From Candidatus Multivorans sp. (GTDB taxonomy: Bacteria; Acidobacteriota; Thermoanaerobaculia; Multivoradales; Multivoraceae): a stretch of 64,000 nucleotides of DNA. Under the pieces are notes generated by a model. The model was not told where the DNA came from. It searched no databases and saw nothing but the letters and a program-made list of their open reading frames with translations. The position numbers were made by a program, and so were the translations under genes. This document shows positions 50,088 through 61,682 of the stretch, piece by piece. How positions within the stretch are numbered: position 1 is the first letter of the stretch; each line of letters begins with the position of its first letter. Location: assembly GCA_965208755.1 (NCBI GenBank), contig OZ242353.1:3866341-3930340 (forward strand), in the 5' to 3' direction.

Positions 50088-51188
50088 CTACTGGCCGCCG
50101 CTGGCCGCGCTGCGCGTCTCGTCCTCGAGCAGTCGCGCGCCCCTGAGGATGTTGCCCATCGCGTAGTTCCCCTCGTGGCAGGCGTACTCGTAGACCTTGG
50201 CCGGCGTGCCGGGCCACAAGTACTCGCCGCTCCAGGGCGCGCTCCACACGGTCGGATCCTCGACCGTGAAGGCGTAGAGCAGGTCGTCCGCGTTGACCCG
50301 GGTGAAGCGCTCGGTCACCTTGAGGTTCCGTGAGGCGAGGAAGAGCGCCGGACGGTCGATGAAGTTCGTGGTCTCGACCACGAGCGTGTCGCCCTCCCAC
50401 CAGCCGATCGAGTCGCCGAGCCAGCGGCGCTCGTCCTCCGGGATGTGCTCGCCGCCGATGCGGACGATGCGGGCGTCGTGGACCATCTCGACCAGGATCA
50501 TCAGGTGGTCCTCGGTCTGCACGATCCGCTTGGCGTTGTTGTAGAGCACGGGCAGCATGGGCGGCCCACCGGTGGAGCCAAAGCCGATCAGGCAGCGTTC
50601 GGGGACGCCCAGAGTCTCCGGACCGTCGTACGGACCGGGGCCTTCGATCTCGAGCCACCAGGCGGTGCCGTCGTTGCCGCGTCTTCGCCCGCGCCGCTCG
50701 GACAGCCGCTGCATCGTCTCGGCGGTCAGTTGCGGCATCCTGCCGTTCGCCGGGTCGACGATGATCGAGGTTCGGAACCTGCCGTCGATCGAGAACACGT
50801 CACTGCCGCGATCCGTCCAGAAGTTGTTGTAGCCGCCGACGTTGCCGGCGCCGCTCGTCTCCCGGAACTCGTCGCCCAGGCCGATCGGCGGCGCGCCGCC
50901 GGGCGGGGGCGGTTCGTCGATCTGGCGGGTAGCGGCCCGGGCCGCCACCCGCTGGCGCTCCCGTTCGACGATCTCCTGCGCCTGCTCGGACGTCAGGTAC
51001 AGGTTGTCTCCGAACTCCCGCGGACGCTGCAACGGCGTCAGCGTGGCGATCTCGTAGTCGCCCGTGAGGTCGGGACGGCCCGAGGCCGTGCGCGGGATCG
51101 CGTCGTCGTCGGCGGCAGGCGCGGCGGGCGCCGCGAGCAAGACGATGGCGGCGGCCGTGGCGGCAGCGAGGGAGACTCTGCTCTGCAT
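50088..51188 (-). CDS. Secreted hypothetical protein (family A paralog)
   Basis: Signal peptide. Block similarity to 48775-49612. Confidence 0.55.
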   Translation of the reverse strand: MQSRVSLAAATAAAIVLLAAPAAPAADDDAIPRTASGRPDLTGDYEIATLTPLQRPREFGDNLYLTSEQAQEIVERERQRVAARAATRQIDEPPPPGGAPPIGLGDEFRETSGAGNVGGYNNFWTDRGSDVFSIDGRFRTSIIVDPANGRMPQLTAETMQRLSERRGRRRGNDGTAWWLEIEGPGPYDGPETLGVPERCLIGFGSTGGPPMLPVLYNNAKRIVQTEDHLMILVEMVHDARIVRIGGEHIPEDERRWLGDSIGWWEGDTLVVETTNFIDRPALFLASRNLKVTERFTRVNADDLLYAFTVEDPTVWSAPWSGEYLWPGTPAKVYEYACHEGNYAMGNILRGARLLEDETRSAASGGQ

Positions 51189-51688: not shown

Positions 51689-52729
51689 ATGAGGACGAAA
51701 CACACTGCTGTCAGTCTGTTCTCCGGAGCTGGCGGCATGGACATCGGAGTCGACCGAGCCGGATTCAAGACGGTTTGCGGGATTGACCTCGATCCTCACT
51801 GTGCAAACACACTCCGCCGTAACGGTCGCGGCAAGACAGTGTGGAACGCCGATGTTCGGATAGTCGATCCTGACCGTCTCCGAGATGCCCTCGGCATGAA
51901 GAGAGGCGATTTGCGGCTCCTTCATGGCGGGCCGCCGTGCCAGCCGTTCAGTCAGATAGGCAAACGCGCCGGCATTAGTGACCCGAGAGGCGCGCTCGTC
52001 TTTGAGATGGCGAGGTTCGCCGAAGCGCTTCGCCCGACGGCGGTGATGATCGAACAGGTCGCCTACTTTCTCCGTGCGAGAATGCCGGATGGCAGGCCGG
52101 TATCAGAGGCGCTGGCCGAGGAGTTTCGCCGCTTGGGCTACGACATGTTTGTGCGTGTTCTCGACGCGAGCCAGTATGGTCTCCCGCAACGGAGGCAACG
52201 GGCTATCCTGGTATGCGTGCCGAGGGGGCAGCACTTCTGGTTCCCGCAGGGCAAAGGTGAATCCAAGACCGTCGGAGCCGCATTGCGTGGTCTTCCGGAG
52301 CCGGTTCGTCGCGGCGAGAAGCCAGCCCTGCCGAACCATGTCGACGTTACGCCAGACCGAGACCGGGAACGCATCTCATACGTGCCTGAAGGACTGTGGT
52401 TGTCCAAGTGCAAGGACGTTCCGCCGCAGATCATGCAGCGGCTCACCCGTAAGGACACCACGAAGTTCCGTCGGCTTGATCGAGCTTCGCTCGCGCCGAC
52501 TCTTCGGTGCGGTGAGGCTCCCTATCACCCGATCGCGGACCGGTACATCACACCGCGGGAGGCGGCACGGCTACAGAGCTTCCCGGACTCTCACGTCTTC
52601 ACTGGCCCGATTCGAGGTCGCAGCGGAAGTGTGCGGGACCTCGATCAGCATCGCCAAGTGGCGAATGCGGTGCCGCCGTTGCTCGCCCGCGTGGTAGCGA
52701 ACCAGCTGTCTGAGACGCTATGCCTGTAG
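51689..52729 (+). CDS. DNA (cytosine-5)-methyltransferase
   Basis: Motif I LFSGAGG, motif IV GGPPCQPFS, motif VI EQV. Confidence 0.85.
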   Translation: MRTKHTAVSLFSGAGGMDIGVDRAGFKTVCGIDLDPHCANTLRRNGRGKTVWNADVRIVDPDRLRDALGMKRGDLRLLHGGPPCQPFSQIGKRAGISDPRGALVFEMARFAEALRPTAVMIEQVAYFLRARMPDGRPVSEALAEEFRRLGYDMFVRVLDASQYGLPQRRQRAILVCVPRGQHFWFPQGKGESKTVGAALRGLPEPVRRGEKPALPNHVDVTPDRDRERISYVPEGLWLSKCKDVPPQIMQRLTRKDTTKFRRLDRASLAPTLRCGEAPYHPIADRYITPREAARLQSFPDSHVFTGPIRGRSGSVRDLDQHRQVANAVPPLLARVVANQLSETLCL

Positions 52730-53682
52730 TTGCGGAACTGTACGGGCAGACCCTCGACGACCGCATTGATCCCAGCCTTTGCCGAACCGCTCAGTGCCCG
52801 TTCATTGGGGCGATTTGCGATGGTGGGGGAAACCGCGATATGGCGCGAGTCAGCGCCTCGGATTTAACGCTTGGCCACCTTTTCTCACGCTCGGTGGGGC
52901 AGGAGACCGAGGGCTGGTTGCCGTGCGGCGTCTGCTCCGTGCGCACTAGCAGCAACAAGGCCTGGGCAATCTGTCCTCATCGCCTGTTTGGCTTCGGTCC
53001 GAACGGTGTATCTCCCAGGCACCGTGATCTGGCTCAGCGGGTGTTTCGCCTCGCGGGCTTCGAGCCAGGCCAACTGGTAGGCGTCTGGCCGGAGATCACC
53101 CTGTCTGAGATAGGTGAAGGCGGCCAGCAGTTCAGGTACCGACTGGACTACGTTCTTCGGGCCATGGACGCTGCTTCGTCGCCGCCGATTATCGTTGAAG
53201 TCATGACGTGCTCGACATCGGGGGGCAAGAAAGCAAAGGGCACAGACATTCAGGCGGCTTTCAAGCGCGCCGTACTGTTCGCTCACACGCCCGCAAAGGA
53301 GGAAGTGGCATCTCCTGGCGTCAACCTGCGGCAAGTTTGGGCGCGGATGGCTTCTCAACTCGTGGCTAAGTCCGAAGCCGCGAACAGCTGGGGCGGCCGG
53401 ACCATCTGGATCGTGCAGGACCTGCTCGCCGACTACATTCGCACACAAACCGCTCTACCGTTGGATGATCTGCACTCCGACGACTGGTCGCCTCACGAGG
53501 TCAACATGGTGGTGGCCGATCTGGATGGGCCAGTGGCTCTTTACGCGGGACCCATCCGTTCTCAGAACGGAGACCGGCGCTGCTGGCTTGAGATCCTCGG
53601 CGCTCCTCATCTCCCTTCTCTCGCGTCCATGACTAGGAAGTTGAACGACGTTCAGCCGTTAGCGGTCGTCGCGGCCCTCTAG
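52720..53682 (+). CDS. NotI-family type II restriction endonuclease
   Basis: N-terminal Cys cluster and WAICPHRLFGFGPNG block aligned by eye to NotI (TGTCPF...C...GVCVVN...WLVCPNR...LFGYGP). Start overlaps the MTase stop by 10 nt. Confidence 0.65.
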   Translation: MPVVAELYGQTLDDRIDPSLCRTAQCPFIGAICDGGGNRDMARVSASDLTLGHLFSRSVGQETEGWLPCGVCSVRTSSNKAWAICPHRLFGFGPNGVSPRHRDLAQRVFRLAGFEPGQLVGVWPEITLSEIGEGGQQFRYRLDYVLRAMDAASSPPIIVEVMTCSTSGGKKAKGTDIQAAFKRAVLFAHTPAKEEVASPGVNLRQVWARMASQLVAKSEAANSWGGRTIWIVQDLLADYIRTQTALPLDDLHSDDWSPHEVNMVVADLDGPVALYAGPIRSQNGDRRCWLEILGAPHLPSLASMTRKLNDVQPLAVVAAL

Positions 53683-53693
53683 GGAAGGCGACC

Positions 53694-54107
53694 ATGGTTG
53701 ACACCGTGTCTCGGGAACGCCGGAGCGAGATTATGGCCCTCGTCAGGTCGAAGGACATGAAGCCCGAGATGGCGGTGCGCCGGATCACTCATGCGATGGG
53801 CTACCGCTACAGGCTTCACCGGAAGGAACTGCCAGGAAGGCCGGATCTGGTGTTTCCGGCCCGCAGCAAGGTGATCTTCGTTCACGGTTGTTTCTGGCAC
53901 CAGCACTCACCTTGCAAGAATGTGCGAGAACCGAAGTCGAACCGAGACTACTGGCTCCCGAAGCTCAGACGGAACGTCGAGCGAGATGTGGAGAACCAAG
54001 CGCGGTTGTCCGAGATCGGTTGGCGAGCGTTGGTCCTGTGGGAGTGCGAGGTGCGAAGTCGGAACGATACAGCCCACCGCATCCGAGAGTTCTTGGAGCG
54101 TCCATGA
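53694..54107 (+). CDS. vsr: Very-short-patch repair endonuclease
   Basis: LVRSKDMKPEMAVRR...FVHGCFWHQHSPCK...WECE, canonical Vsr. Confidence 0.85.
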   Translation: MVDTVSRERRSEIMALVRSKDMKPEMAVRRITHAMGYRYRLHRKELPGRPDLVFPARSKVIFVHGCFWHQHSPCKNVREPKSNRDYWLPKLRRNVERDVENQARLSEIGWRALVLWECEVRSRNDTAHRIREFLERP

Positions 54108-54622: not shown

Positions 54623-54721
54623 GCCCGCCTGGCTGGCTTCCGATGCAGGCCCACGGCGTCCCGTGACCGGGGACCGGAGGAGAGGGTTGGCGCCGGGCCT
54701 TGTTGGTCGCCATGCACAGTG

Positions 54722-54925
54722 GGCACGAAACGCCCCGCCTATTCGCCGAGCGCCGGGAGCGACCCGGCGCCTGGTGTCGACTGTTGTATTCGGCAGGAGA
54801 CCCGGCTCGCAGGCCCACGGCGCGACGACAACCAACCACGAGAAGCTACCGCGCCGCCGATTGCGCGTCAAACGAACCGGCCAGCGGTCGGGCAGGGGCC
54901 GAGACGGATGCCGAGGTGAGACTAG
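54722..54925. repeat. ~190-bp repeat family copy A, ending in a truncated 3-codon ORF with RBS
   Basis: Shares GGGAGCGACCC...GGCAGG..CCGGCTCGCAGGCCCAC.GCGC..GACGAC.AACCAACGAG...GAGACGATG with copy B at 58975-59165. About 70-75% identity over 150+ nt. Confidence 0.55.
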
Positions 54926-54942: not shown

Positions 54943-55641
54943 TCAGGGGAGGGCGGCCGTCGCCGCCGCGACCATCAAGCCCGCCAGACCGATCTCCAGC
55001 ACCTTTCCCGCGGCCCAGTTGATCGCGGCGATAGCGAACCCCGCCGGCCTGGACAGCCGGAACACGGCGGCAGCGCCCAGGCCGAGCAGAAGAAAGGACC
55101 AGACGAAGACGAAGGAGCTGACCATCAGGTCGAGAATGGCGCCGGGCGCGATGGCGGCCACGACCGCCAGCGCGTCCAGCCCTGAGCCCGCTTCTCTGTT
55201 CAGGACGTTCCGTTGAAACTCAAGGAGGCCGCCGACCTGGGTGGTTCTCAAGGCCGAGCGGACCACTAGCCCCACGGCGCTGATCAGGCTGACGTGGAGC
55301 GCCAGCGACAGGCACTGTTCGATGCTCGCCCGACCCTTCAGGGCCGCCGCCAGGAGCCGGAGCACGACGGTCTCGAACAACAGCGCGAGCGGGATGGCCG
55401 CGAGGAAGAACGAGACCATCCCGTATGGAATCTCGAGAGAGTCACCGATGCTCTCCATCGCATCGCCGAACCACCAGGCAGTCAGCAGACCGGCCAGGAG
55501 CACCAGGAAGATGCCCAATGCCAGGCCTGCGCCCCACGGATGGTGCTCGCGGATGACGACGAAGCTCTTCCGCGGAGCGGTGAAGATCCAGATCAGGGCT
55601 TTGAACCAGAGGTGACGGCTGGCCTCCGGTCGCTCGCCCAT
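54943..55641 (-). CDS. Yip1-like polytopic membrane protein
   Basis: N-terminus WFKALIWIFTAPRKSF then about 5 TM helices. Paralog of 55687-56466 (NAWLKALIGIFTSPRQSFEII). Confidence 0.55.
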   Translation of the reverse strand: MGERPEASRHLWFKALIWIFTAPRKSFVVIREHHPWGAGLALGIFLVLLAGLLTAWWFGDAMESIGDSLEIPYGMVSFFLAAIPLALLFETVVLRLLAAALKGRASIEQCLSLALHVSLISAVGLVVRSALRTTQVGGLLEFQRNVLNREAGSGLDALAVVAAIAPGAILDLMVSSFVFVWSFLLLGLGAAAVFRLSRPAGFAIAAINWAAGKVLEIGLAGLMVAAATAALP

Positions 55642-55686: not shown

Positions 55687-56466
55687 TCAGGTCGGCATGA
55701 GTCGGGCTGCCAGGCCAATCGTCGCGGCCGCGAAGGCCGTCGTCGTTGCCCAGTAGATGGCGGCCAGCAGCCAGGCCTTGCGCTGTGGGACCTCGAACGC
55801 CGCGGCGGCGCCTAGGGCGAGCAACGCGAGAAACCAGACCGTGAACGGATTGATGCTCGCGTAAACGACGTTGAGCGTCGCGTTGTCGCCGGCCAGCAGC
55901 AGGTCGAGTCCCATCGGCGCCTGGAGGTCCAGTTGCGATCGGATCGCGTCGGTGCCACGGACGTGGAGGAGAAGGAAGTTGGCCCAGCTCTTGAGGTGGG
56001 TGATCACGGCCAGATGGACCATCAGGGAGAGGGACTGGACAAATCGGGGCCGTCCCTTGAGTGCTACCGCCAACAGCCACACGAAGACGGTCTGAACCGC
56101 GAGTCCGAGGGCCAGTTGCAGGGGTCCGGTGGCCATCGAAACCCATCTCGCCGCCGCGGCCGTCTGCTCGATCTGCGCCATCATGGCGTCGACCTGTTCC
56201 GGGTTGCCCGGCATCCGCTCCGTCAACTGGTTCCGCATCGCCTGGAGACCCAGAGGCGCCGAGGACATCGCCAGGGCGGCGCTTCCGGCTACGAGAAGAA
56301 GCAGCGGCGCGAGCCATGGGTTGCGGCGCCGGATGATCTCGAAACTCTGCCGCGGCGACGTGAAGATCCCGATGAGCGCCTTGAGCCAGGCGTTCCGGCC
56401 CTGTGAGTGGTCGCCGGTGGCTTTGATGTTGCGTTCGTCGTGGATGCTGCCTGCGTGCTCGGTCAT
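55687..56466 (-). CDS. Yip1-like polytopic membrane protein
   Basis: Internal Met start MTEHAGS at 56466 in an ATGA overlap with the ABC ATPase stop. The track ORF extends to 56604 inside the ATPase gene. Confidence 0.55.
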   Translation of the reverse strand: MTEHAGSIHDERNIKATGDHSQGRNAWLKALIGIFTSPRQSFEIIRRRNPWLAPLLLLVAGSAALAMSSAPLGLQAMRNQLTERMPGNPEQVDAMMAQIEQTAAAARWVSMATGPLQLALGLAVQTVFVWLLAVALKGRPRFVQSLSLMVHLAVITHLKSWANFLLLHVRGTDAIRSQLDLQAPMGLDLLLAGDNATLNVVYASINPFTVWFLALLALGAAAAFEVPQRKAWLLAAIYWATTTAFAAATIGLAARLMPT

Positions 56467-57248
56467 GTCGCGCTCCTGTTGCCGATCCAGGAGAGGCGGG
56501 AGAACCTCTCGCGCCTGGAGATACTGAGAATGAGGTTCTCGAGCCGCCCGGCGCCGTCTTCTCCCTCGGCGGCTGGCAGTTCGCGGAACTCCTCCCGGGA
56601 GCACGACAGGAGGACCTTGCCGTCCCTGATGACGGCGATGTGGGTCGACACGCGCTCGACGTAGTCGAGCATGTGGGAAGTGAGGAAGACGGCTGCGCCC
56701 TGCTCCGCCATCTGCTGCAGGATCGACATGACGGTCCGGGCGCTCAGGGCGTCCATACCCTCGAACGGCTCGTCGAGGAACAGGACCCGCGGCGCGTGAA
56801 GCGTCGCTGCCGCGAGGCGGATCTTCTTCCTCATCCCGTGCGAGTAGGTCGTGATCGGCCGTTTGGCTGCGCCTTCGAGGTCGAAGACCGAGAGCGCTTC
56901 GTCGGTCCGCTGCCCGGCGTCCTCGCGGCTCAGGCCGTAGATGCGGGCATAGGAGAGCAGCAGCTCTTCGCCGGTCAGGCTCTCGAACATCACGCTGTGG
57001 TCGGGGACGATGCCGAGTTGTTGCTTGAGTTCCGTGTCGTTGATGTCCATCGGCCTGCCCAGCAGGCGGACCGTGCCGCTCGTGGGATTGAGCACCCCGG
57101 TCAGCATGGACCAGGTCGTCGTCTTTCCGGCCCCGTTGGGACCGACGAAGCCCAGGATCTGTCCCTCCCGGACGTCCAGGTCGACGCCGTCGACGACGAC
57201 GTTGCCTCCGTACGACCGGGTCAGGTTCTCTGCCTTGATTACTTCCAT
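56463..57248 (-). CDS. ABC transporter ATP-binding protein
   Basis: Walker A GPNGAGKTT, signature-like YSHGMRKK, Walker B VLFLDEP. Confidence 0.85.
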   Translation of the reverse strand: MEVIKAENLTRSYGGNVVVDGVDLDVREGQILGFVGPNGAGKTTTWSMLTGVLNPTSGTVRLLGRPMDINDTELKQQLGIVPDHSVMFESLTGEELLLSYARIYGLSREDAGQRTDEALSVFDLEGAAKRPITTYSHGMRKKIRLAAATLHAPRVLFLDEPFEGMDALSARTVMSILQQMAEQGAAVFLTSHMLDYVERVSTHIAVIRDGKVLLSCSREEFRELPAAEGEDGAGRLENLILSISRRERFSRLSWIGNRSAT

Positions 57249-57300: not shown

Positions 57301-58887
57301 CTAGTGGGAGGAGTCCTTGAGCAGGAGTTCGCGGCCGCGGGCCGCCAGCATCCGTCTCTGCCTTTGGCGAGACGCGTAGGCGGCCGCTGCGGCGAGGAGG
57401 AGTACGCCGACCGCGATGAGCGCGGCTGTCAGCGGCGTCACGCGCTGGCGTTCCAGGAACGCCCAGAGGAGAAAGGAGAGGGCGCCCGGCAGGCCGACGA
57501 GGTGTGCGGCCACCAGGGTGGCGCCGAGCCTGGCGCCGTCGGGATCGTGCAGGAACCCCTCGTTGCGTTGAGGCCAGCGAAGCTGAATCAGGCCGTACGT
57601 TGCGGTGGCCATGAGGAATCCCGCGAGCATCAGGCAGACGGCGACGAAGAAGAACGGCCAGCCGAACCACTCAAGCGGCGTCAGTCCCAGGATGAACGCG
57701 ATGACGAAGACGATGACCGCGTTCATCGCACGGCCGGGTGCGCTGAAGATCCGCCGGACCGGGAACGGCAGCGTTAGCGACTCCCGCCATACGTGGCAGG
57801 TCGGGGGCTGCTTTCCGATGCGGAACTCGTGCAGAAAGATGGCGAAGAGAGCCGCCGGCCCTACCGCGAAGCCGCCTGCGGTGGGCACCAGGACGAGGGA
57901 GGTGCCCAAGACCAACGCGAGAACCAGACGTGCCGGTTTGAGACGCAGGAGGCACTCGCTCTCGACCAGCGTCAGGACGCCCGCCGGAGTGAGATGCTTC
58001 GCCTTGCGGAGCAGCCGGGCCACCGGCAGGCTCCCGGAAGCCGCGCGCCGGTCGCCGCCAGGACGCTCCAGGTAGCCGCGGAGCAGCAGCCGGTTCTCCA
58101 GTACGACCAGGGCGCCGAGAATCGCGAACAGGCTGCCGAGTCTCGCCAGATTCGACGCCGAAAGCCCCGGTTGGTGGACGATGCCGGCGACCAGCCCGGG
58201 CGGCGTGTAGCCGAGCCCGCCGAGAACGGCCGACTCCTCGATCGCCCGAGTGAGCCCTTCGGAAGCGATCTCTCCGCCGAAGGCCAGCACCCCGAGCATG
58301 ATCGCGCCCTGGCACGCGGCAATGATCGCCACGATGGCCAGGGCGCCGAGCTTGCCTTCGACCGGCCGGTTGACGAGAAGCGACAGGATCGCCGCGGTAC
58401 GGCCGAAGATCCACACCAGGCCCAGGATGGCGAGCAGGGTGATCGGCGCTCCGCTGACGCCTCCCGATCTCATGACGGCGAGGTAGACGCCGGCGGGACC
58501 GAGGACGGGGAGCCAGTACCCGATCGTGCTCAGGGCAAACCGGAGACCGTAGAGGTCCCGGAAGCTGACTGGCAGCCGCAGCAGATCCTCCAGGTCGAGC
58601 AGAAAGATCACGGGCGCTCGAAGCAGCACCTGGGCGAGCAACGCGACCGCCGTCACGGAACAGGCGATCAGGCTCAGGAGGTTTCTCCGCAGGACCTCGC
58701 TCTCGATGGCGAAGATCGCCGGAAGCAGCCCCAGGGTCGCGACAGTCGCGAACGCGAGGAACAGGACGGCAACGAAGATCGCCACCGCCAGCGGCTGCTT
58801 GCTCCGCCGGACCGCGTCCGGCAAGGCCAGCCGCGCGAGCGTCAGCAGCAGATCGGCCCGGCTACCCGGGTGCGTGAACGTCGCCAT
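57301..58887 (-). CDS. Large polytopic membrane protein, putative ABC-2-type permease partner
   Basis: 528 aa with at least 12 hydrophobic segments. Lies directly upstream of the ABC ATPase on the same strand. Confidence 0.55.
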   Translation of the reverse strand: MATFTHPGSRADLLLTLARLALPDAVRRSKQPLAVAIFVAVLFLAFATVATLGLLPAIFAIESEVLRRNLLSLIACSVTAVALLAQVLLRAPVIFLLDLEDLLRLPVSFRDLYGLRFALSTIGYWLPVLGPAGVYLAVMRSGGVSGAPITLLAILGLVWIFGRTAAILSLLVNRPVEGKLGALAIVAIIAACQGAIMLGVLAFGGEIASEGLTRAIEESAVLGGLGYTPPGLVAGIVHQPGLSASNLARLGSLFAILGALVVLENRLLLRGYLERPGGDRRAASGSLPVARLLRKAKHLTPAGVLTLVESECLLRLKPARLVLALVLGTSLVLVPTAGGFAVGPAALFAIFLHEFRIGKQPPTCHVWRESLTLPFPVRRIFSAPGRAMNAVIVFVIAFILGLTPLEWFGWPFFFVAVCLMLAGFLMATATYGLIQLRWPQRNEGFLHDPDGARLGATLVAAHLVGLPGALSFLLWAFLERQRVTPLTAALIAVGVLLLAAAAAYASRQRQRRMLAARGRELLLKDSSH

Positions 58888-58974
58888 CGAGTCCTGGGTG
58901 TCGTTCTAGCCGGCTCTGAGGAAAGGTGGGCCGGCACCTGGACTGGTGGCGGGCCGAATCGGCCGCTCTGCGCA

Positions 58975-59165
58975 GGAGAAACGAGACCCCCCGCCGACTT
59001 GCCTGACGCAGGGAGCGACCCTGAGCCCAGGGGCGACGGCTAGGTCTGGCAGGGGGTCCGGCTCGCAGGCCCACTGCGCCTCTGACGACCAACGAGTGGA
59101 CGCTAGCGCGCCGGGATAGCGCCCGTCAAACATCTCTGCGGGGAGGAGAGACGATGGCAACGAAG
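58975..59165. repeat. ~190-bp repeat family copy B, ending in RBS+ATG of a 31-codon ORF (59154-59249, +)
   Basis: See copy A. Ends GGGGAGGAGAGACGATG. Confidence 0.55.
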
Positions 59166-59262: not shown

Positions 59263-59550
59263 CTACTTGCAGAAGACCAACGCAACAGGTGCGTACGCTC
59301 CGATAATGGCGGCCCCGACACCGCCGGTGGCGGCGCCGGTTCCCATGGCAACGAAGCTGAAGGCGAGCACCGCGCCGACGCAGCTCCAGTTCGTTCCGCC
59401 GGTTGCCGTCGCGAGCAACGCTTCCCCGGTCTGCTCGGCCTCGACGGGGATGCTGGCCGTCGGGACGGCGGGTCCACTGGCGCCCGTGGCCGGGGCCAGA
59501 GCGAACAGAAACGTGAGAAGGAGGGTTGCGGCTACTGCTTTCTTGGACAT
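59263..59550 (-). CDS. Small secreted peptide with a double-glycine-like motif and a Gly-rich two-Cys C-terminus (bacteriocin-like precursor)
   Basis: N-terminus MSKKAVAATLLLTFLFALAPATGASG is Sec-like. An internal VEAEQTGEALLATATGG|TNWSC... resembles a GG-leader. A GTG start at VEAEQ would give an 18-aa GG-leader. Core TNWSCVGAVLAFSFVAMGTGAATGGVGAAIIGAYAPVALVFCK has 2 Cys. Confidence 0.5.
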   Translation of the reverse strand: MSKKAVAATLLLTFLFALAPATGASGPAVPTASIPVEAEQTGEALLATATGGTNWSCVGAVLAFSFVAMGTGAATGGVGAAIIGAYAPVALVFCK

Positions 59551-59619: not shown

Positions 59620-59979
59620 TCAGAAGAACATGGCGCAGGCCATGCCGGCGCCTGCCAGCGCCAGACCAGGGCCTGCACCGACGCCGGTCAACGCGAGAGC
59701 GAAGCCAGCGCCAGTGGCGGCTCCGCACAGGAAGTCGGAAGTGGGGCCTGCCCCTGCTGTTCGAGCCAGAACCCGGTCGGACAGGGACTGCGGCCCGAGG
59801 CCGGGGGCAGGCTGGAGGGCGGACACGTCTGGGGCCGGGGTTGGGACCGGCCCGAGATCCCAGGTGGCCCTCAGCGTGGCCGCGCCTGGGTCCTGCGCCT
59901 CGCCGGCGGTTGGTGTCGCCATAGCGGCGCCGGCAAGGAACAGGAAGAGGACGGAAAGAAAGGCAATGCGTAGTTTCAT
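59620..59979 (-). CDS. Small secreted peptide, leader-conserved paralog 1 (Gly/Ala-rich hydrophobic two-Cys core)
   Basis: MKLRIAFLSVLFLFLAGAAMATPTAGEA...ATWDLGPV is a conserved leader. Core ...SDFLCGAATGAGFALALTGVGAGPGLALAGAGMACAMFF. RBS AAGGAGCC. Confidence 0.5.
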   Translation of the reverse strand: MKLRIAFLSVLFLFLAGAAMATPTAGEAQDPGAATLRATWDLGPVPTPAPDVSALQPAPGLGPQSLSDRVLARTAGAGPTSDFLCGAATGAGFALALTGVGAGPGLALAGAGMACAMFF

Positions 59980-60043
59980 CGAGAGTTGGCTCCTTCGAGG
60001 TCTATTGGGTTGTGCGTGAGACGGACGCGTAGTTCGCTGTGGC

Positions 60044-60217
60044 TCAGACGGGGAAGTAGCAGGTAAGGGCGATCAGGCCGCCCAGGCCGGGAGCGATGGT
60101 GTCGACCATTGCCGCTACCACCATGCAAGCCCAGGAGACGGCCCAGCCGGACCCGCCGGTGACCGTCGCCAGGCCTGCCTCGGGCAGGTTCGCAATCAGG
60201 ATTGAAGTGGCGTTCAT
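60044..60217 (-). CDS. Double-glycine-leader bacteriocin-like precursor peptide, 57 aa (not in the ORF track)
   Basis: Hand translation: MNATSILIANLPEAGLATVTGG|SGWAVSWACMVVAAMVDTIAPGLGGLIALTCYFPV. RBS AAGGAGA 6 nt upstream of the ATG at 60217. Leader fits the L..E.L..V.GG consensus. Core is Gly-rich with 2 Cys. Confidence 0.6.
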   Translation of the reverse strand: MNATSILIANLPEAGLATVTGGSGWAVSWACMVVAAMVDTIAPGLGGLIALTCYFPV

Positions 60218-60257
60218 TTCGCGTCTCCTTGAGGCTCTTGGTTGTCAGGGCACGGCA

Positions 60258-60569
60258 CTAGAAGAGGATGGGAGGAAGGCACTTGTCGGGACCGGGCCAC
60301 GGGCTCGGGAACGGCCAAGGAACCGGGAAGGGGCGGGGCGAGGGAGGAAAGGGAAAGCTGTCGCAGGGCCAGGGGTAGTACACAGCCGTCCGTGTCGGCG
60401 CATCCGTCCGAAGGACGTAGCCGTCGGGGGCGGCAACCGGCCCGAGATCCCAAGCGGCCACCAGCGAGATGTCGTCCGGGCCCCGCGCCTCGCCGGCGGT
60501 CGGCGTCGCCATGGCCGCGCCGGTGAGAAACAGGAAGAGGAGGGAAAGGAAGGTAGTGCGTAGTTTCAT
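60258..60569 (-). CDS. Small secreted peptide, leader-conserved paralog 2 (Pro/Trp/Phe-rich two-Cys core)
   Basis: MKLRTTFLSLLFLFLTGAAMATPTAGEA...AAWDLGPV leader is near-identical to paralog 1, including about 50 nt upstream. Core YYPWPCDSFPFPPSPRPFPVPWPFPSPWPGPDKCLPPILF. ATGA overlap with the C39 gene stop. Confidence 0.5.
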   Translation of the reverse strand: MKLRTTFLSLLFLFLTGAAMATPTAGEARGPDDISLVAAWDLGPVAAPDGYVLRTDAPTRTAVYYPWPCDSFPFPPSPRPFPVPWPFPSPWPGPDKCLPPILF

Positions 60570-61186
60570 TGAGAGCTATCTCCTTCAAGGGTTGTGGGTT
60601 GGGGTGAAACGGACGGCATCGTGGCCGTCCGGGAAATCGGTGGCGGGCCGCTGGTGAAGGACAGAACGACGCCGTCCCAGGATCGTTCGAAGGTCCTGGA
60701 ACTCATGCGCAGCCGCCCGAGGGAGGGGTCGTCGATGACGAGTTCGTCGCCGGCGCTGCGAATGACGACGAAGTGATCGCCGTGCACGTGCGCGATCGCG
60801 GGGAGCGGGATGTCGTGGAGCCGCTGGACCGGTAGCCGGAGGCCCTGGCTCGTCACGCCTCGCTTTTCCGCGGCCTTCTTGAGCGCGAGCAGGCTGGTGC
60901 CGTCCGGGCCGGTTCCGGTGGCGAGCTCGAGCTCGGCGAGGGTCGTATCCTGGATGCCCCAGTGATCGAGGACCATCTTCAGGGCCGCCGGGCCGCAGTC
61001 GGCGCGTCTCTGCTGGCGAACGATCTCGCCTGGGGCCGGCGCCGATGGGTCGAGCGTGGCGGCCCAGGCCAGCCGGTCCATGGTCGGCCCCAGGGCCCGG
61101 GCCGCGACCGTCACGAGACCGGCCGCGAGCAGCAGACCGGCAGCGGCCGCGTGCGGTGGGCGAATCCGGAATCGCTCAGAGTGCAT
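60566..61186 (-). CDS. Standalone peptidase C39 (bacteriocin-processing cysteine peptidase) domain protein with an N-terminal TM or signal anchor
   Basis: Internal Met start MHSERFRIRPPHAAAAGLLLAAGLVTVAARALG. QQRRADCGPAALKMVLDHWG (catalytic Cys) ... LPAIAHVHGDHFVVI (catalytic His). No ABC domains are fused. The track ORF extends to 61336 overlapping the upstream gene. Confidence 0.7.
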   Translation of the reverse strand: MHSERFRIRPPHAAAAGLLLAAGLVTVAARALGPTMDRLAWAATLDPSAPAPGEIVRQQRRADCGPAALKMVLDHWGIQDTTLAELELATGTGPDGTSLLALKKAAEKRGVTSQGLRLPVQRLHDIPLPAIAHVHGDHFVVIRSAGDELVIDDPSLGRLRMSSRTFERSWDGVVLSFTSGPPPISRTATMPSVSPQPTTLEGDSSQ

Positions 61187-61682
61187 CGCCGCCGGATTCC
61201 AGAAAGGAGCGCCAGGCGATCTCTGGACGCTCTCCGGTGGTGACCGCGAGGATCCGGGACTGGCCGTCGACCAGGAACACCAGCGGTACATGGACGACGC
61301 CGAATCGCTTCGAGACGGCGCCGTCCGGATCGGCAATGGCCGCGTGGACGCCGTCGCCGTCGAGTTCGGGCGAATCCGAGCCGGCGACGACCGCGATCAG
61401 GTCGAAGGTCGGACCCTCCGTCCGTGCCATGCGGCGCAGGGCGGTGATGGTGCGGTCGCAGTTGCCGCAGCCGGCCCTGGCGAAGGTCACGACCCGCAGC
61501 CGGCCGGGAGCGGCCGGCAGGGCTTCACCGTCCGCGAGGCCCGGCAGCGCGGGGAACAGCGCGCCGACTTCGGGGCGCTGGGCCTGCCGCGCGCGGATCC
61601 CGGATTCGAACCAGATCAGACCTCCGAAGGGGGCGAGGACGGCCACGACGACGGTGGCGATGGCAAGTCGGCGGCGGTTCAT
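61176..61682 (-). CDS. Membrane-anchored thioredoxin-fold thiol-disulfide oxidoreductase (TlpA/ResA-like, CxxC)
   Basis: Internal Met start MNRRRLAIATVVVAVLAPF (TM anchor). CGNC active-site motif in ARAGCGNCDRT. Overlaps the C39 gene by 11 nt. Confidence 0.65.
   Translation of the reverse strand: MNRRRLAIATVVVAVLAPFGGLIWFESGIRARQAQRPEVGALFPALPGLADGEALPAAPGRLRVVTFARAGCGNCDRTITALRRMARTEGPTFDLIAVVAGSDSPELDGDGVHAAIADPDGAVSKRFGVVHVPLVFLVDGQSRILAVTTGERPEIAWRSFLESGGDAL

Follow-up and report, generated by a model that had tools for sequence, protein, structure and literature searches.

The window analyzed here is a stretch of 64,000 nucleotides of contig OZ242353.1 from a Candidatus Multivorans genome, and it contains a chromosomal, bacteriocin-like locus that is conserved in a clade of sponge symbionts. 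All genes of the locus lie on the minus strand, in the order thioredoxin-like protein (Trx), C39 cysteine peptidase, four small peptides (pepA, pepB, pepC, and pepD), a presumed permease, an ABC ATPase, and two Yip1/YknW-family membrane proteins. Two of the peptide genes, pepA and pepC, begin with the same N-terminal segment and continue into unrelated cores. This arrangement arose through a single old copy of the pepA head onto pepC, in which one peptide gene was “re-headed” with the signal peptide of its neighbor. The peptide genes and the two repeat copies are as follows, with a slash marking the predicted cleavage position after a double-glycine (GG) type leader.

60427–60615, minus strand: repeat copy 1 (donor); the last ~48 nt of the C39 gene, including the pepA ribosome-binding site (RBS) GGAG, and pepA codons 1–48
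59837–60027, minus strand: repeat copy 2 (recipient); the relic of the C39 3′ end in the pepB–pepC spacer, the RBS, and pepC codons 1–48
60258–60569, minus strand: pepA, 103 aa; predicted signal peptide 1–21, spacer 22–~58, core rich in Pro, Trp, and Phe (C69 and C97), GG-type site absent
60044–60217, minus strand: pepB, 57 aa; canonical N-terminal GG leader (MNATSILIANLPEAGLATVTGG/), no signal peptide, hydrophobic two-Cys core
59620–59979, minus strand: pepC, 119 aa; borrowed head 1–46, own spacer, GG-type leader ~61–77 (L71 at −7, G76-A77/G78)
59263–59550, minus strand: pepD, 95 aa; own signal peptide (MSKKAVAATLLL...), GG leader (...EALLATATGG/), hydrophobic two-Cys core

Extent of the Duplication

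A first-pass annotation, made from the letters of the window alone, had described pepA and pepC as tandem paralogs sharing ~45 codons and ~50 nt of upstream sequence, and the self-similarity of the region is indeed significant. The top local alignment (59837–60027 against 60427–60615) is ~80% identical and scores 107, compared with 13.6 ± 2.1 in 300 dinucleotide-preserving shuffles (z = 44), and a direct repeat of 164 nt (59837–60000 and 60427–60590) can be aligned without gaps at 80% identity. At the protein level, residues 1–48 of pepA and pepC are 71% identical (tblastn E = 5e-18). The shared part amounts to ~48 nt of 5′ flank and codons 1–46, close to what had been claimed, and ends in a WDLGPV motif kept in both copies; beyond this point (codon ~46) pepA and pepC are unrelated, again as annotated, and both cores have the two Cys residues that had been assigned to them (C69 and C97 in pepA, C85 and C115 in pepC).

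The flank of the pepA copy belongs to the C39 peptidase gene and forms its 3′ end, an overlap that had also been recognized: the C39 stop codon (60566–60568) overlaps the pepA start as ATGA. The flank of the pepC copy is a decayed, non-coding relic of this C39 end, with its frame broken by indels and a stop. GGAG lies 8–12 nt ahead of each ATG. Neither further copies of the shared module nor a second C39 gene occur within the window, and a search of the other frames of pepA for a hidden Gly/Ala core found none.

Direction and Age of the Copy

Related loci provide the state of pepC before the copy was made. In relatives whose pepC begins with an MTK-type head (L007 and L009), the spacer upstream of pepC is unrelated to the C39 end, whereas the ~48 nt that precede the pepC ATG align to it in the window, L001, and L004. 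The window is collinear with L018 between the Trx gene and the end of pepB (61978→60039) and again within pepC (59811→57000, 93%), and the intervening 60038→59812 matches only L018’s own C39-end/pepA-start, which places the replaced segment at ~59812–60038, as judged against relatives with the ancestral pepC head. The PTSDF core of pepC carries the MTK-type head in ~30 of ~40 clusters formed at 90% identity and the pepA-type head in ~6. A segment of ~190–225 nt, consisting of the C39 end, the RBS, and pepA codons 1–46, has therefore replaced ~157 nt of spacer, RBS, and MTK head at pepC, and the relic of the C39 end upstream of pepC gives the direction of the swap as pepA to pepC.

The shared parts of pepA and pepC differ by a synonymous divergence (dS) of 0.38, with a ratio of nonsynonymous to synonymous substitution rates (omega) of 0.24 in the signal part and 0.65 in the spacer. 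The window’s pepC head is 91% identical to the pepC head of L004 and 79–80% identical to any pepA head. Because pepC heads cluster together across genomes and dS is this high, the copying happened once, long ago, and was followed by vertical inheritance (window compared with L004 and L013). The same two observations, that dS is 0.38 and that pepC heads are nearer to other genomes’ pepC heads than to their own pepA, rule out ongoing gene conversion between the two genes.

A Predicted Export Head

The shared segment had been annotated as the leader of a family of peptides that are ribosomally synthesized and then post-translationally modified (RiPPs) or bacteriocins, a conserved leader with hypervariable cores. 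Its features are instead those of a Sec-type signal peptide followed by a spacer. Across 21 homologs, residues 1–21 follow the layout recognized by signal peptidase I, with K2 and R4 in the n-region, a hydrophobic stretch at residues 5–18, and small residues at −3 (A/V19) and −1 (A21, invariant in these homologs). Hydropathy peaks at residues 3–21, the single N-terminal hydrophobic segment, and a helix spanning residues 2–20 is the sole part that AlphaFold2 predicts with confidence, in pepA and pepC alike. Residues 22–46 form the spacer. The 88-aa pepA of L004 and L020 has lost part of it, and the 75-aa pepA of L021, L023, and L024 lacks the region altogether.

The association between head and core is loose. 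The module stands on two unrelated cores in the window, as the first-pass annotation had it, and also heads other cores in P0064 and P0172, but the commonest head on the Gly/Ala core is an unrelated, signal-like one (MTKTLLAVVAGAAL..., beginning MTKTLL...) found in a 106-aa protein, and unrelated signal peptides are found elsewhere on each of the PTSDF, GTGW, and INWRK cores. Since unrelated signal heads are found on the same Gly/Ala core, the shared segment reads as a generic export head, a Sec-type signal peptide with a dispensable spacer, and not as a leader read by an enzyme; the peptides would accordingly be Sec dependent, to judge from these signal features. The head is common to two of the four peptides, and the cores are distinct yet each conserved (omega 0.07–0.22 for pepC and ~0.5 for pepA), which does not bear out the hypervariability attributed to them. 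Downstream of the shared head, pepC has a likely C39 recognition sequence of its own (...SLSDRVLARTAGAG/PTSDF). When all 10 proteins of the locus were scanned against Pfam and NCBIfam, no RiPP modification enzyme emerged, only Trx, C39, ABC ATPase, and Yip1 families and two proteins without a match.

Cassette Exchange Between Strains

Slot contents of the peptide array differ between genomes, and cassettes are exchanged between strains. Between L014 and L019, collinearity at 87% identity extends up to codon ~49 of the gene in slot C, is lost across core C and slot D, where the two are unrelated, and returns at a conserved non-coding element upstream of the permease gene, which forms the right-hand breakpoint of the exchange. 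The divergent segment of L014 is 82% identical to the matching gene pair in L047. The swap in L014 yields P0064, in which a pepA-type head stands on a GTGWVEAAC core, one that is found elsewhere behind an MKQTALL head of its own, and P0172 combines a similar head with a third core at a different junction. One junction, after W[DG]LGPV.T, precedes two different cores. The earlier suggestion of polymorphic cassette shuffling thus finds support at the population level (L014, L019, L047, P0064, and P0172), although the window’s own copy is an old and fixed event. The peptides also differ from polymorphic toxins of the contact-dependent inhibition (CDI) and Rhs types, which combine a large delivery domain and a demarcation motif with variable C-terminal toxins, each having an immunity gene behind it; the peptides are only 57–119 aa long, have no immunity open reading frame (ORF) for each core, and are followed by shared ABC and Yip1 genes.

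The element at the right-hand breakpoint is present twice in the window:

58952–59097, minus strand: element copy 1, structured and non-coding; right-hand edge of the swappable cassette, upstream of the permease gene
54696–54840, minus strand: element copy 2, structured and non-coding; downstream of the last Yip1 gene

The two copies of this ~146-nt element are 71% identical. It occupies the same two places in ~45 related loci at 75–99% identity, above the conservation of the peptide genes, and a covariance model collected 67 copies. In its consensus structure of 36 pairs, 96% of cells are paired, compared with ~45% when the structure is slid, and compensatory changes occur in nine pairs against a shuffle mean of 4.4 (1/500). 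Promoter-like conserved blocks precede the element (GTTTGACGG ... GCGCTAGCGTCC, also GTTTGACGG...GCTAGCGTCC), a scan with the sigma-70 consensus found no promoter, and Rfam has no family for the locus or the element. The element may be a cis-regulatory leader RNA.

The Four Peptides and Their Predicted Processing Sites

Two of the four two-Cys peptide genes, pepB and pepD, were absent from the first-pass annotation; pepB lies between the two paralogs. When peptides of the ~45 main and paralogous loci are aligned, a recurrent site, seen in dozens of peptides, immediately precedes each hydrophobic or Cys-rich core, with L at −7, V, A, T, or I at −4, G at −2, and G, A, T, or S at −1. Examples are GLATVTGG/S in pepB and LLATATGG/T in pepD and, in paralogous loci, LSDEELAAVSGG/ (a textbook leader that stands behind signal peptides), LTDAQLATVIGG/, and LLAVTGT/G. 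The pepC sequence fits this site as VLARTAGA/G, with L71 at −7 and G76 at −2, in a register that is uncertain, a cut after G78 being possible. A GG, GA, or GS site as in double-glycine peptides is therefore found in pepB, pepD, and, subject to this register, pepC. A leader of 15–30 aa at the extreme N-terminus, without a Sec signal, is found only in pepB; in pepC and pepD a signal-like segment and a spacer come first. Both pepB and its 61-aa counterpart in L009 and L012 have the canonical N-terminal GG leader and no signal peptide, and most other GG peptides beside this C39 subfamily, in the loci examined, have a signal-like head.

The pepC core is Gly/Ala-rich, 41–42 aa long, and highly conserved (omega 0.07–0.22), with C85 and C115 and the consensus ...TAG[ATR]GPTSDFLCGAATGAGFALAL.GVGA.PG..L.GAGMACAMFF. 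AlphaFold2 predicts, with modest confidence, a hairpin of two helices (79–98 and 102–118) with both Cys residues at its open end, and a short leader helix at 68–73.

The pepA family is of a different kind. It is a genuine family, with invariant Pro and Cys columns and an omega of ~0.5, and a narrow one, with 16 representatives (50% identity) among 1.84 billion proteins. All members have an MK[LMTI]RIALLS head and a C-terminal aromatic residue, and the cores fall into at least three types, none of which has a GG-type site. The core has no Pfam or NCBIfam family and no PDB match. It is not a proline-rich antimicrobial peptide in the usual sense, those being linear, cationic, and Cys-free with PRP-type motifs: its net charge is ~0 (D, R, D, K) and it has two invariant Cys residues. 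An AlphaFold2 model built with 21 homologs has a predicted local distance difference test (pLDDT) score of 56 and is confident only in the signal helix. In the main locus pepA is always the first gene after C39, it is absent from the paralogous loci that have every other component, and its type varies independently of the neighboring cores. Our best guess is that pepA is accessory secreted cargo, a specific immunity or chaperone factor being less likely.

Neither the permease nor any of the four peptides falls into a Pfam or NCBIfam family, and a PDB sequence search with the pepA core and a pepC profile gave nothing meaningful. Weak matches to ComC, GRASP-target, TMEM100, and V-ATPase-K were dismissed as noise, and a weak NCBIfam match of distant peptides to the JUQZ-1 bacteriocin family was dropped, as it covers the signal peptide only.

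A Proposed Route of Export, Oxidation, and Cleavage

The remaining genes of the locus are:

61176–61682, minus strand: thioredoxin/redoxin-like protein, 168 aa; N-terminal membrane anchor, CGNC motif
60566–61186, minus strand: standalone C39 cysteine peptidase, 206 aa from the ATG at 61186; N-terminal Arg-flanked hydrophobic segment, Q58/C64/H138/D153
57301–58887, minus strand: polytopic membrane protein, 528 aa, ~10 hydrophobic segments, no family match; presumed permease of the ABC ATPase
56463–57248, minus strand: ABC ATPase, DrrA/ABC-2 type
55687–56466, minus strand: Yip1/YknW-family membrane protein, 259 aa from the ATG at 56466
54943–55641, minus strand: second Yip1/YknW-family membrane protein, 232 aa

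The bacteriocin-like character ascribed to the locus, an active-looking C39 double-glycine peptidase beside two-Cys peptides, stands. The C39 protein matches Pfam Peptidase_C39 (1.5e-31), its best NCBIfam match is the NHLP-exporter (NHLM) peptidase domain (2e-23), and its best PDB matches are the peptidase domains of LahT150, ComA, and PCAT1. Among 19 diverse homologs C64, H138, and D153 never vary and Q58 hardly does, giving the Cys, His, Gln, and Asp residues of a catalytic C39 directly adjacent to the peptide genes. At 206 aa and without ABC domains, it does not belong to the peptidase-containing ABC transporters (PCATs), in which a cytoplasmic C39 domain is fused to transmembrane and nucleotide-binding domains. 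Nor is it an equivalog of FapD, scoring 44.3 bits on that model against a cut-off of 330, and the locus has no fapA–F genes.

Several lines of evidence point to a C39 that faces outward, into the periplasm. In all 19 homologs the N-terminus is Arg-rich and leads into one hydrophobic segment, and the same holds for Trx. A fusion protein on a distant contig, P0152 (327 aa; L011 6589–9554), consists of one N-terminal transmembrane segment, a redoxin domain (CPYC), and then C39, and provides a Rosetta-stone link between the window’s separate Trx and C39 genes; after it come an 86-aa peptide made up of a signal, LQQIVGG, and a two-Cys core, and then a Yip1 gene. The candidate substrates carry signals, and there is a precedent in FapD, a C39 peptidase experimentally active in the periplasm and required for amyloid secretion (PMC5557850). 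Taken together these features suggest that the window’s C39 is periplasmic.

On this basis a route can be proposed. The precursors would cross the inner membrane via Sec, with removal of the signal peptide; the membrane-anchored Trx-like protein would make the single disulfide between the two Cys residues; and the outward-facing, anchored C39 would cut pepC, pepD, and probably pepB after the GG-type site, freeing hydrophobic helical-hairpin peptides of 35–43 residues. In the case of pepA, signal-peptidase cleavage and oxidation only would give a disulfide-closed Pro/Trp-rich peptide. The products, cut at the predicted sites, are putatively antibacterial, and the permease, the ABC ATPase, and the Yip1/YknW proteins (NCBIfam YknW_fam, 5e-20) would most plausibly give the producer protection or pump the peptides out, an analogy drawn with YknWXYZ and the SDP peptide and with the ABC-2 systems for lantibiotics and phenol-soluble modulins.

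Related membrane-anchored C39 genes followed by a peptide with a signal, a GG leader, and a Cys-rich core are found in metagenome-assembled genomes (MAGs) of Bacteroidota, Ignavibacteria, Latescibacterota-like, and other Acidobacteriota, one such distant peptide being MKKAISLLMLFLVVLTLLGPVSAPPKMSAQLDSNEMMQITGG/KTTCGGYWGHLYCC.... No description of a Sec-plus-periplasmic-C39 peptide pathway was found in the searchable literature. A widespread and apparently undescribed two-step route in diderms (Acidobacteriota, Bacteroidota, Ignavibacteria, and others), with a Sec signal before the GG leader, periplasmic oxidation by a thioredoxin that is sometimes fused to the peptidase, trimming by an outward C39, and Yip1/ABC protection, together with a new disulfide-closed Pro/Trp-rich family and, between the signal module and the RNA-like element as its bounds, a strain-polymorphic cassette site in Candidatus Multivorans, is a generalization that we put forward tentatively, at slightly less than an even chance of being right.

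In L058–L091 (e.g., L063 6525–6761, L077 6521–6733, and L062 6662–6979) the peptides have an LSxxEMxxIxGG leader after a Sec-like signal, and no curated family recognizes them. A further C39 homolog, P0157 (234 aa), runs in frame into a GG peptide (…MELTQGG/LSWGCWIAIAG…), either as a natural fusion or through a lost stop.

Genomic Context and Distribution

A scan of GTDB species genomes finds the C39 gene in dozens of Candidatus Multivorans and Thermoanaerobaculia MAGs, and look-ups of exact sequences place the locus peptides also in MAGs labelled Holophagales or Acidobacteria. In the Candidatus Multivorans and Thermoanaerobaculia genomes the locus is syntenic and always next to an SNF2 gene; in the window it is flanked by an SNF2 helicase gene and, on the other side, by a Dcm–Vsr cassette. 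The relatives have the order Trx, C39, Pro-rich peptide, one to four hydrophobic peptides, permease, ABC ATPase, and Yip1. Paralogous loci, taken from sister genomes (L051–L057), comprise Trx, C39, permease, Yip1, ABC ATPase, and one or two peptides, and have no Pro-rich gene. A second standalone C39 (P0111, 207 aa, 61% identical) lies on the window’s 5.07-Mb contig outside the window, and the same genome therefore probably has a paralogous peptide locus as well.

Several other features of the region were observed. The stretches 55529–55619 and 56309–56399 form a 91-nt repeat at 70% identity that derives from tandem duplication of the Yip1/YknW gene, and some relatives have a single Yip1. On the plus strand, 51689–54107 encodes a C5 cytosine DNA methylase (Pfam 6e-52), a 320-aa ORF without a family, and a Vsr endonuclease (7e-27); this restriction-modification-like cassette is inserted between element copy 2 and a gene for a 366-aa protein (50088–51188, minus strand) that directly follows the locus in relatives L001–L009. 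In L008 (8624–14199) three transposase genes, two Transposase_mut and one DDE_Tnp_1, break the peptide array after the Pro-rich gene and leave a peptide gene and the permease gene truncated.

Alternative Explanations

The account favored here, one segmental copy of an export head followed by Sec export, periplasmic oxidation, and C39 cleavage, appears reasonably probable as a whole. The most basic objection, that the similarity is a non-coding or mobile-element fragment and that one or both ORFs are not genes, draws on the GC-rich DNA of the window, in which long spurious ORFs are frequent in all frames. It can be all but discarded, since both ORFs are full length in many genomes with omega below 1, their Cys and Pro columns are invariant, GGAG precedes both ATGs by 8–12 nt, the module has no extra copies in the window, and the pepA family has so few representatives among known proteins; a transposable-element origin of the conserved region, which the first-pass annotation had named as its possible undoing, is likewise contradicted by the data. 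A true RiPP or bacteriocin leader of ~46 residues, read by a maturation enzyme and joined to hypervariable cores, would explain why one N-terminus stands on several unrelated cores (pepA types 1–3, PTSDF, P0064, and P0172), why a C39 gene adjoins, and why WDLGPV is common to both copies. We nevertheless regard it as improbable: apart from Trx and C39 the locus encodes no modifying enzyme, the region past residue 27 is deleted in natural pepA orthologs, the PTSDF, GTGW, and INWRK cores take unrelated signal peptides elsewhere, pepC has a separate GG-type leader beside its core, and each core is conserved. An actively diversifying cassette system, in which the module and the non-coding element serve as homology arms and the duplication was selected as such an arm, is a more serious contender, though still an unlikely one. 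The breakpoints of L014 and L019 at codon ~49 and at the element, the 82% match of the L014 cassette to L047, the junction W[DG]LGPV.T shared by two cores, the different junction of P0172, and the variable slots all fit it, but the window’s copy is old (dS 0.38) and vertically inherited (compared with L004 and L013), the locus has no recombinase, integrase, or repeat-bounded mobile element, the transposases of L008 disrupt the locus and do not mobilize it, and ordinary homologous recombination would suffice without any dedicated function.

A further alternative concerns function, namely that the peptides are not toxins but components of the envelope, such as fiber, amyloid, or pilus-like subunits or membrane hairpins, matured by a C39 of the FapD/FilB type and assembled by the ABC and Yip1 proteins. 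The C39 has sub-threshold matches to the FapD (1.2e-11) and FilB models, FapD itself is periplasmic and needed for amyloid secretion (PMC5557850), the Gly/Ala-rich cores are as hydrophobic as transmembrane hairpins, and the locus is chromosomal, syntenic, and vertically inherited in the symbiont clade. Against this, the matches of C39 to bacteriocin PCAT domains are stronger (NHLM 2e-23; LahT150, ComA, and PCAT1), the leaders are of the textbook bacteriocin GG type, there is no FapF-like pore and no usher, and multi-paralog, strain-variable arrays with ABC-2 and YknW genes are typical of toxin-plus-immunity loci, so that a structural role seems rather improbable. The favored account of a copied export head and a periplasmic C39 has its own difficulties. 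The FapD and FilB matches, weaker as they are, leave room for a structural, non-toxin role; Sec dependence and the orientation of C39 rest on sequence rules and on the fusion protein P0152; the periplasmic model offers no explanation for pepB, whose GG leader comes without a signal peptide; and the pepC site is G-A-G (G-T-G or G-R-G in relatives) and not a textbook GG, with an uncertain scissile bond. In addition, the locus has no outer-membrane export component, and every sequence comes from a MAG.

Significance

The accepted picture of C39 double-glycine peptidases is that they are domains of ABC exporters, lie in the cytoplasm, and remove the leader as the peptide is exported. The periplasmic C39/thioredoxin route that we infer would be a variation on this paradigm not yet described for such peptides. 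To our knowledge, FapD is the one periplasmic C39 that has been studied, and its substrate is still not known; an outward-facing standalone C39 paired with neighbors that bear textbook GG leaders would make periplasmic C39 activity directly testable. The duplication is, in addition, a clean natural case of signal-peptide swapping between tandem genes, and the sponge-symbiont clade appears to have a conserved yet strain-variable peptide arsenal, including a Pro/Trp-rich disulfide family without known relatives. Genome mining that looks for an N-terminal GG signal would miss this class of candidate bacteriocins in Acidobacteriota, Bacteroidota, and Ignavibacteria.

Comparison with Known Systems

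The closest general resemblance is to class II microcins and bacteriocins, with their MccV/CvaAB-TolC, ComA, LahT, and PCAT1 systems, whose peptides are small, unmodified, Gly/Ala-rich, and hydrophobic and often contain a disulfide. The GG-type site with L at −7 and a hydrophobic residue at −4, and a C39 with the Q/C/H/D set, are likewise shared (PMC12219008). In the window, however, C39 is a standalone, membrane-anchored protein of 206 aa and not a cytoplasmic domain of an ABC transporter, no gene for a membrane fusion protein or TolC is present, and in three of the four peptides, by our count, the GG leader is internal, behind a Sec-like signal. Microcin mining screens explicitly for N-terminal GG signals (PMC12219008), and peptides with an internal GG leader would be missed.

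Bacteroidetocins (class IIf) offer a Gram-negative parallel, with a GG-leader Cys peptide, a thiol oxidoreductase dedicated to the locus (Coyne et al. 2019, PMC6671954), and a multi-transmembrane protein. Unlike the peptides described here, they have a 15-aa N-terminal leader and a PCAT, and lack a Sec signal, a standalone C39, and Yip1. FapD of the Pseudomonas Fap amyloid system is also a standalone C39 with an N-terminal export signal and is active in the periplasm (PMC5557850), but the Fap proteins have no canonical GG leaders and the FapD substrate is not known, whereas here the neighboring genes are candidates with GG leaders; the low score on the FapD model (44 bits against 330) and the absence of fapA–F genes separate the two systems further.

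SdpC is a Sec-exported pro-peptide that is processed to a hydrophobic disulfide toxin of ~42 aa. The SDP system of Bacillus subtilis, in which YknWXYZ, composed of the Yip1-family protein YknW and an ABC transporter, protects Bacillus against the SDP peptide (PMC4887032), thus resembles the present locus in its Sec-exported pro-peptide and in its pairing of a Yip1-family protein with an ABC transporter. It differs in its maturation by SdpAB instead of C39 and Trx, in having no GG leader, in its Gram-positive host, and in its FtsX-type permease. The prochlorosins and the NHLP/Nif11 families, finally, also place one N-terminal module on unrelated cores, and the best NCBIfam match of the window’s C39 is the NHLP-exporter peptidase. 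In those families, however, the leader is a recognition element for enzymes and the cores are hypervariable substrates of one modifying enzyme, whereas here an export signal acquired by recombination appears to stand before conserved cores, with no modifying enzyme.

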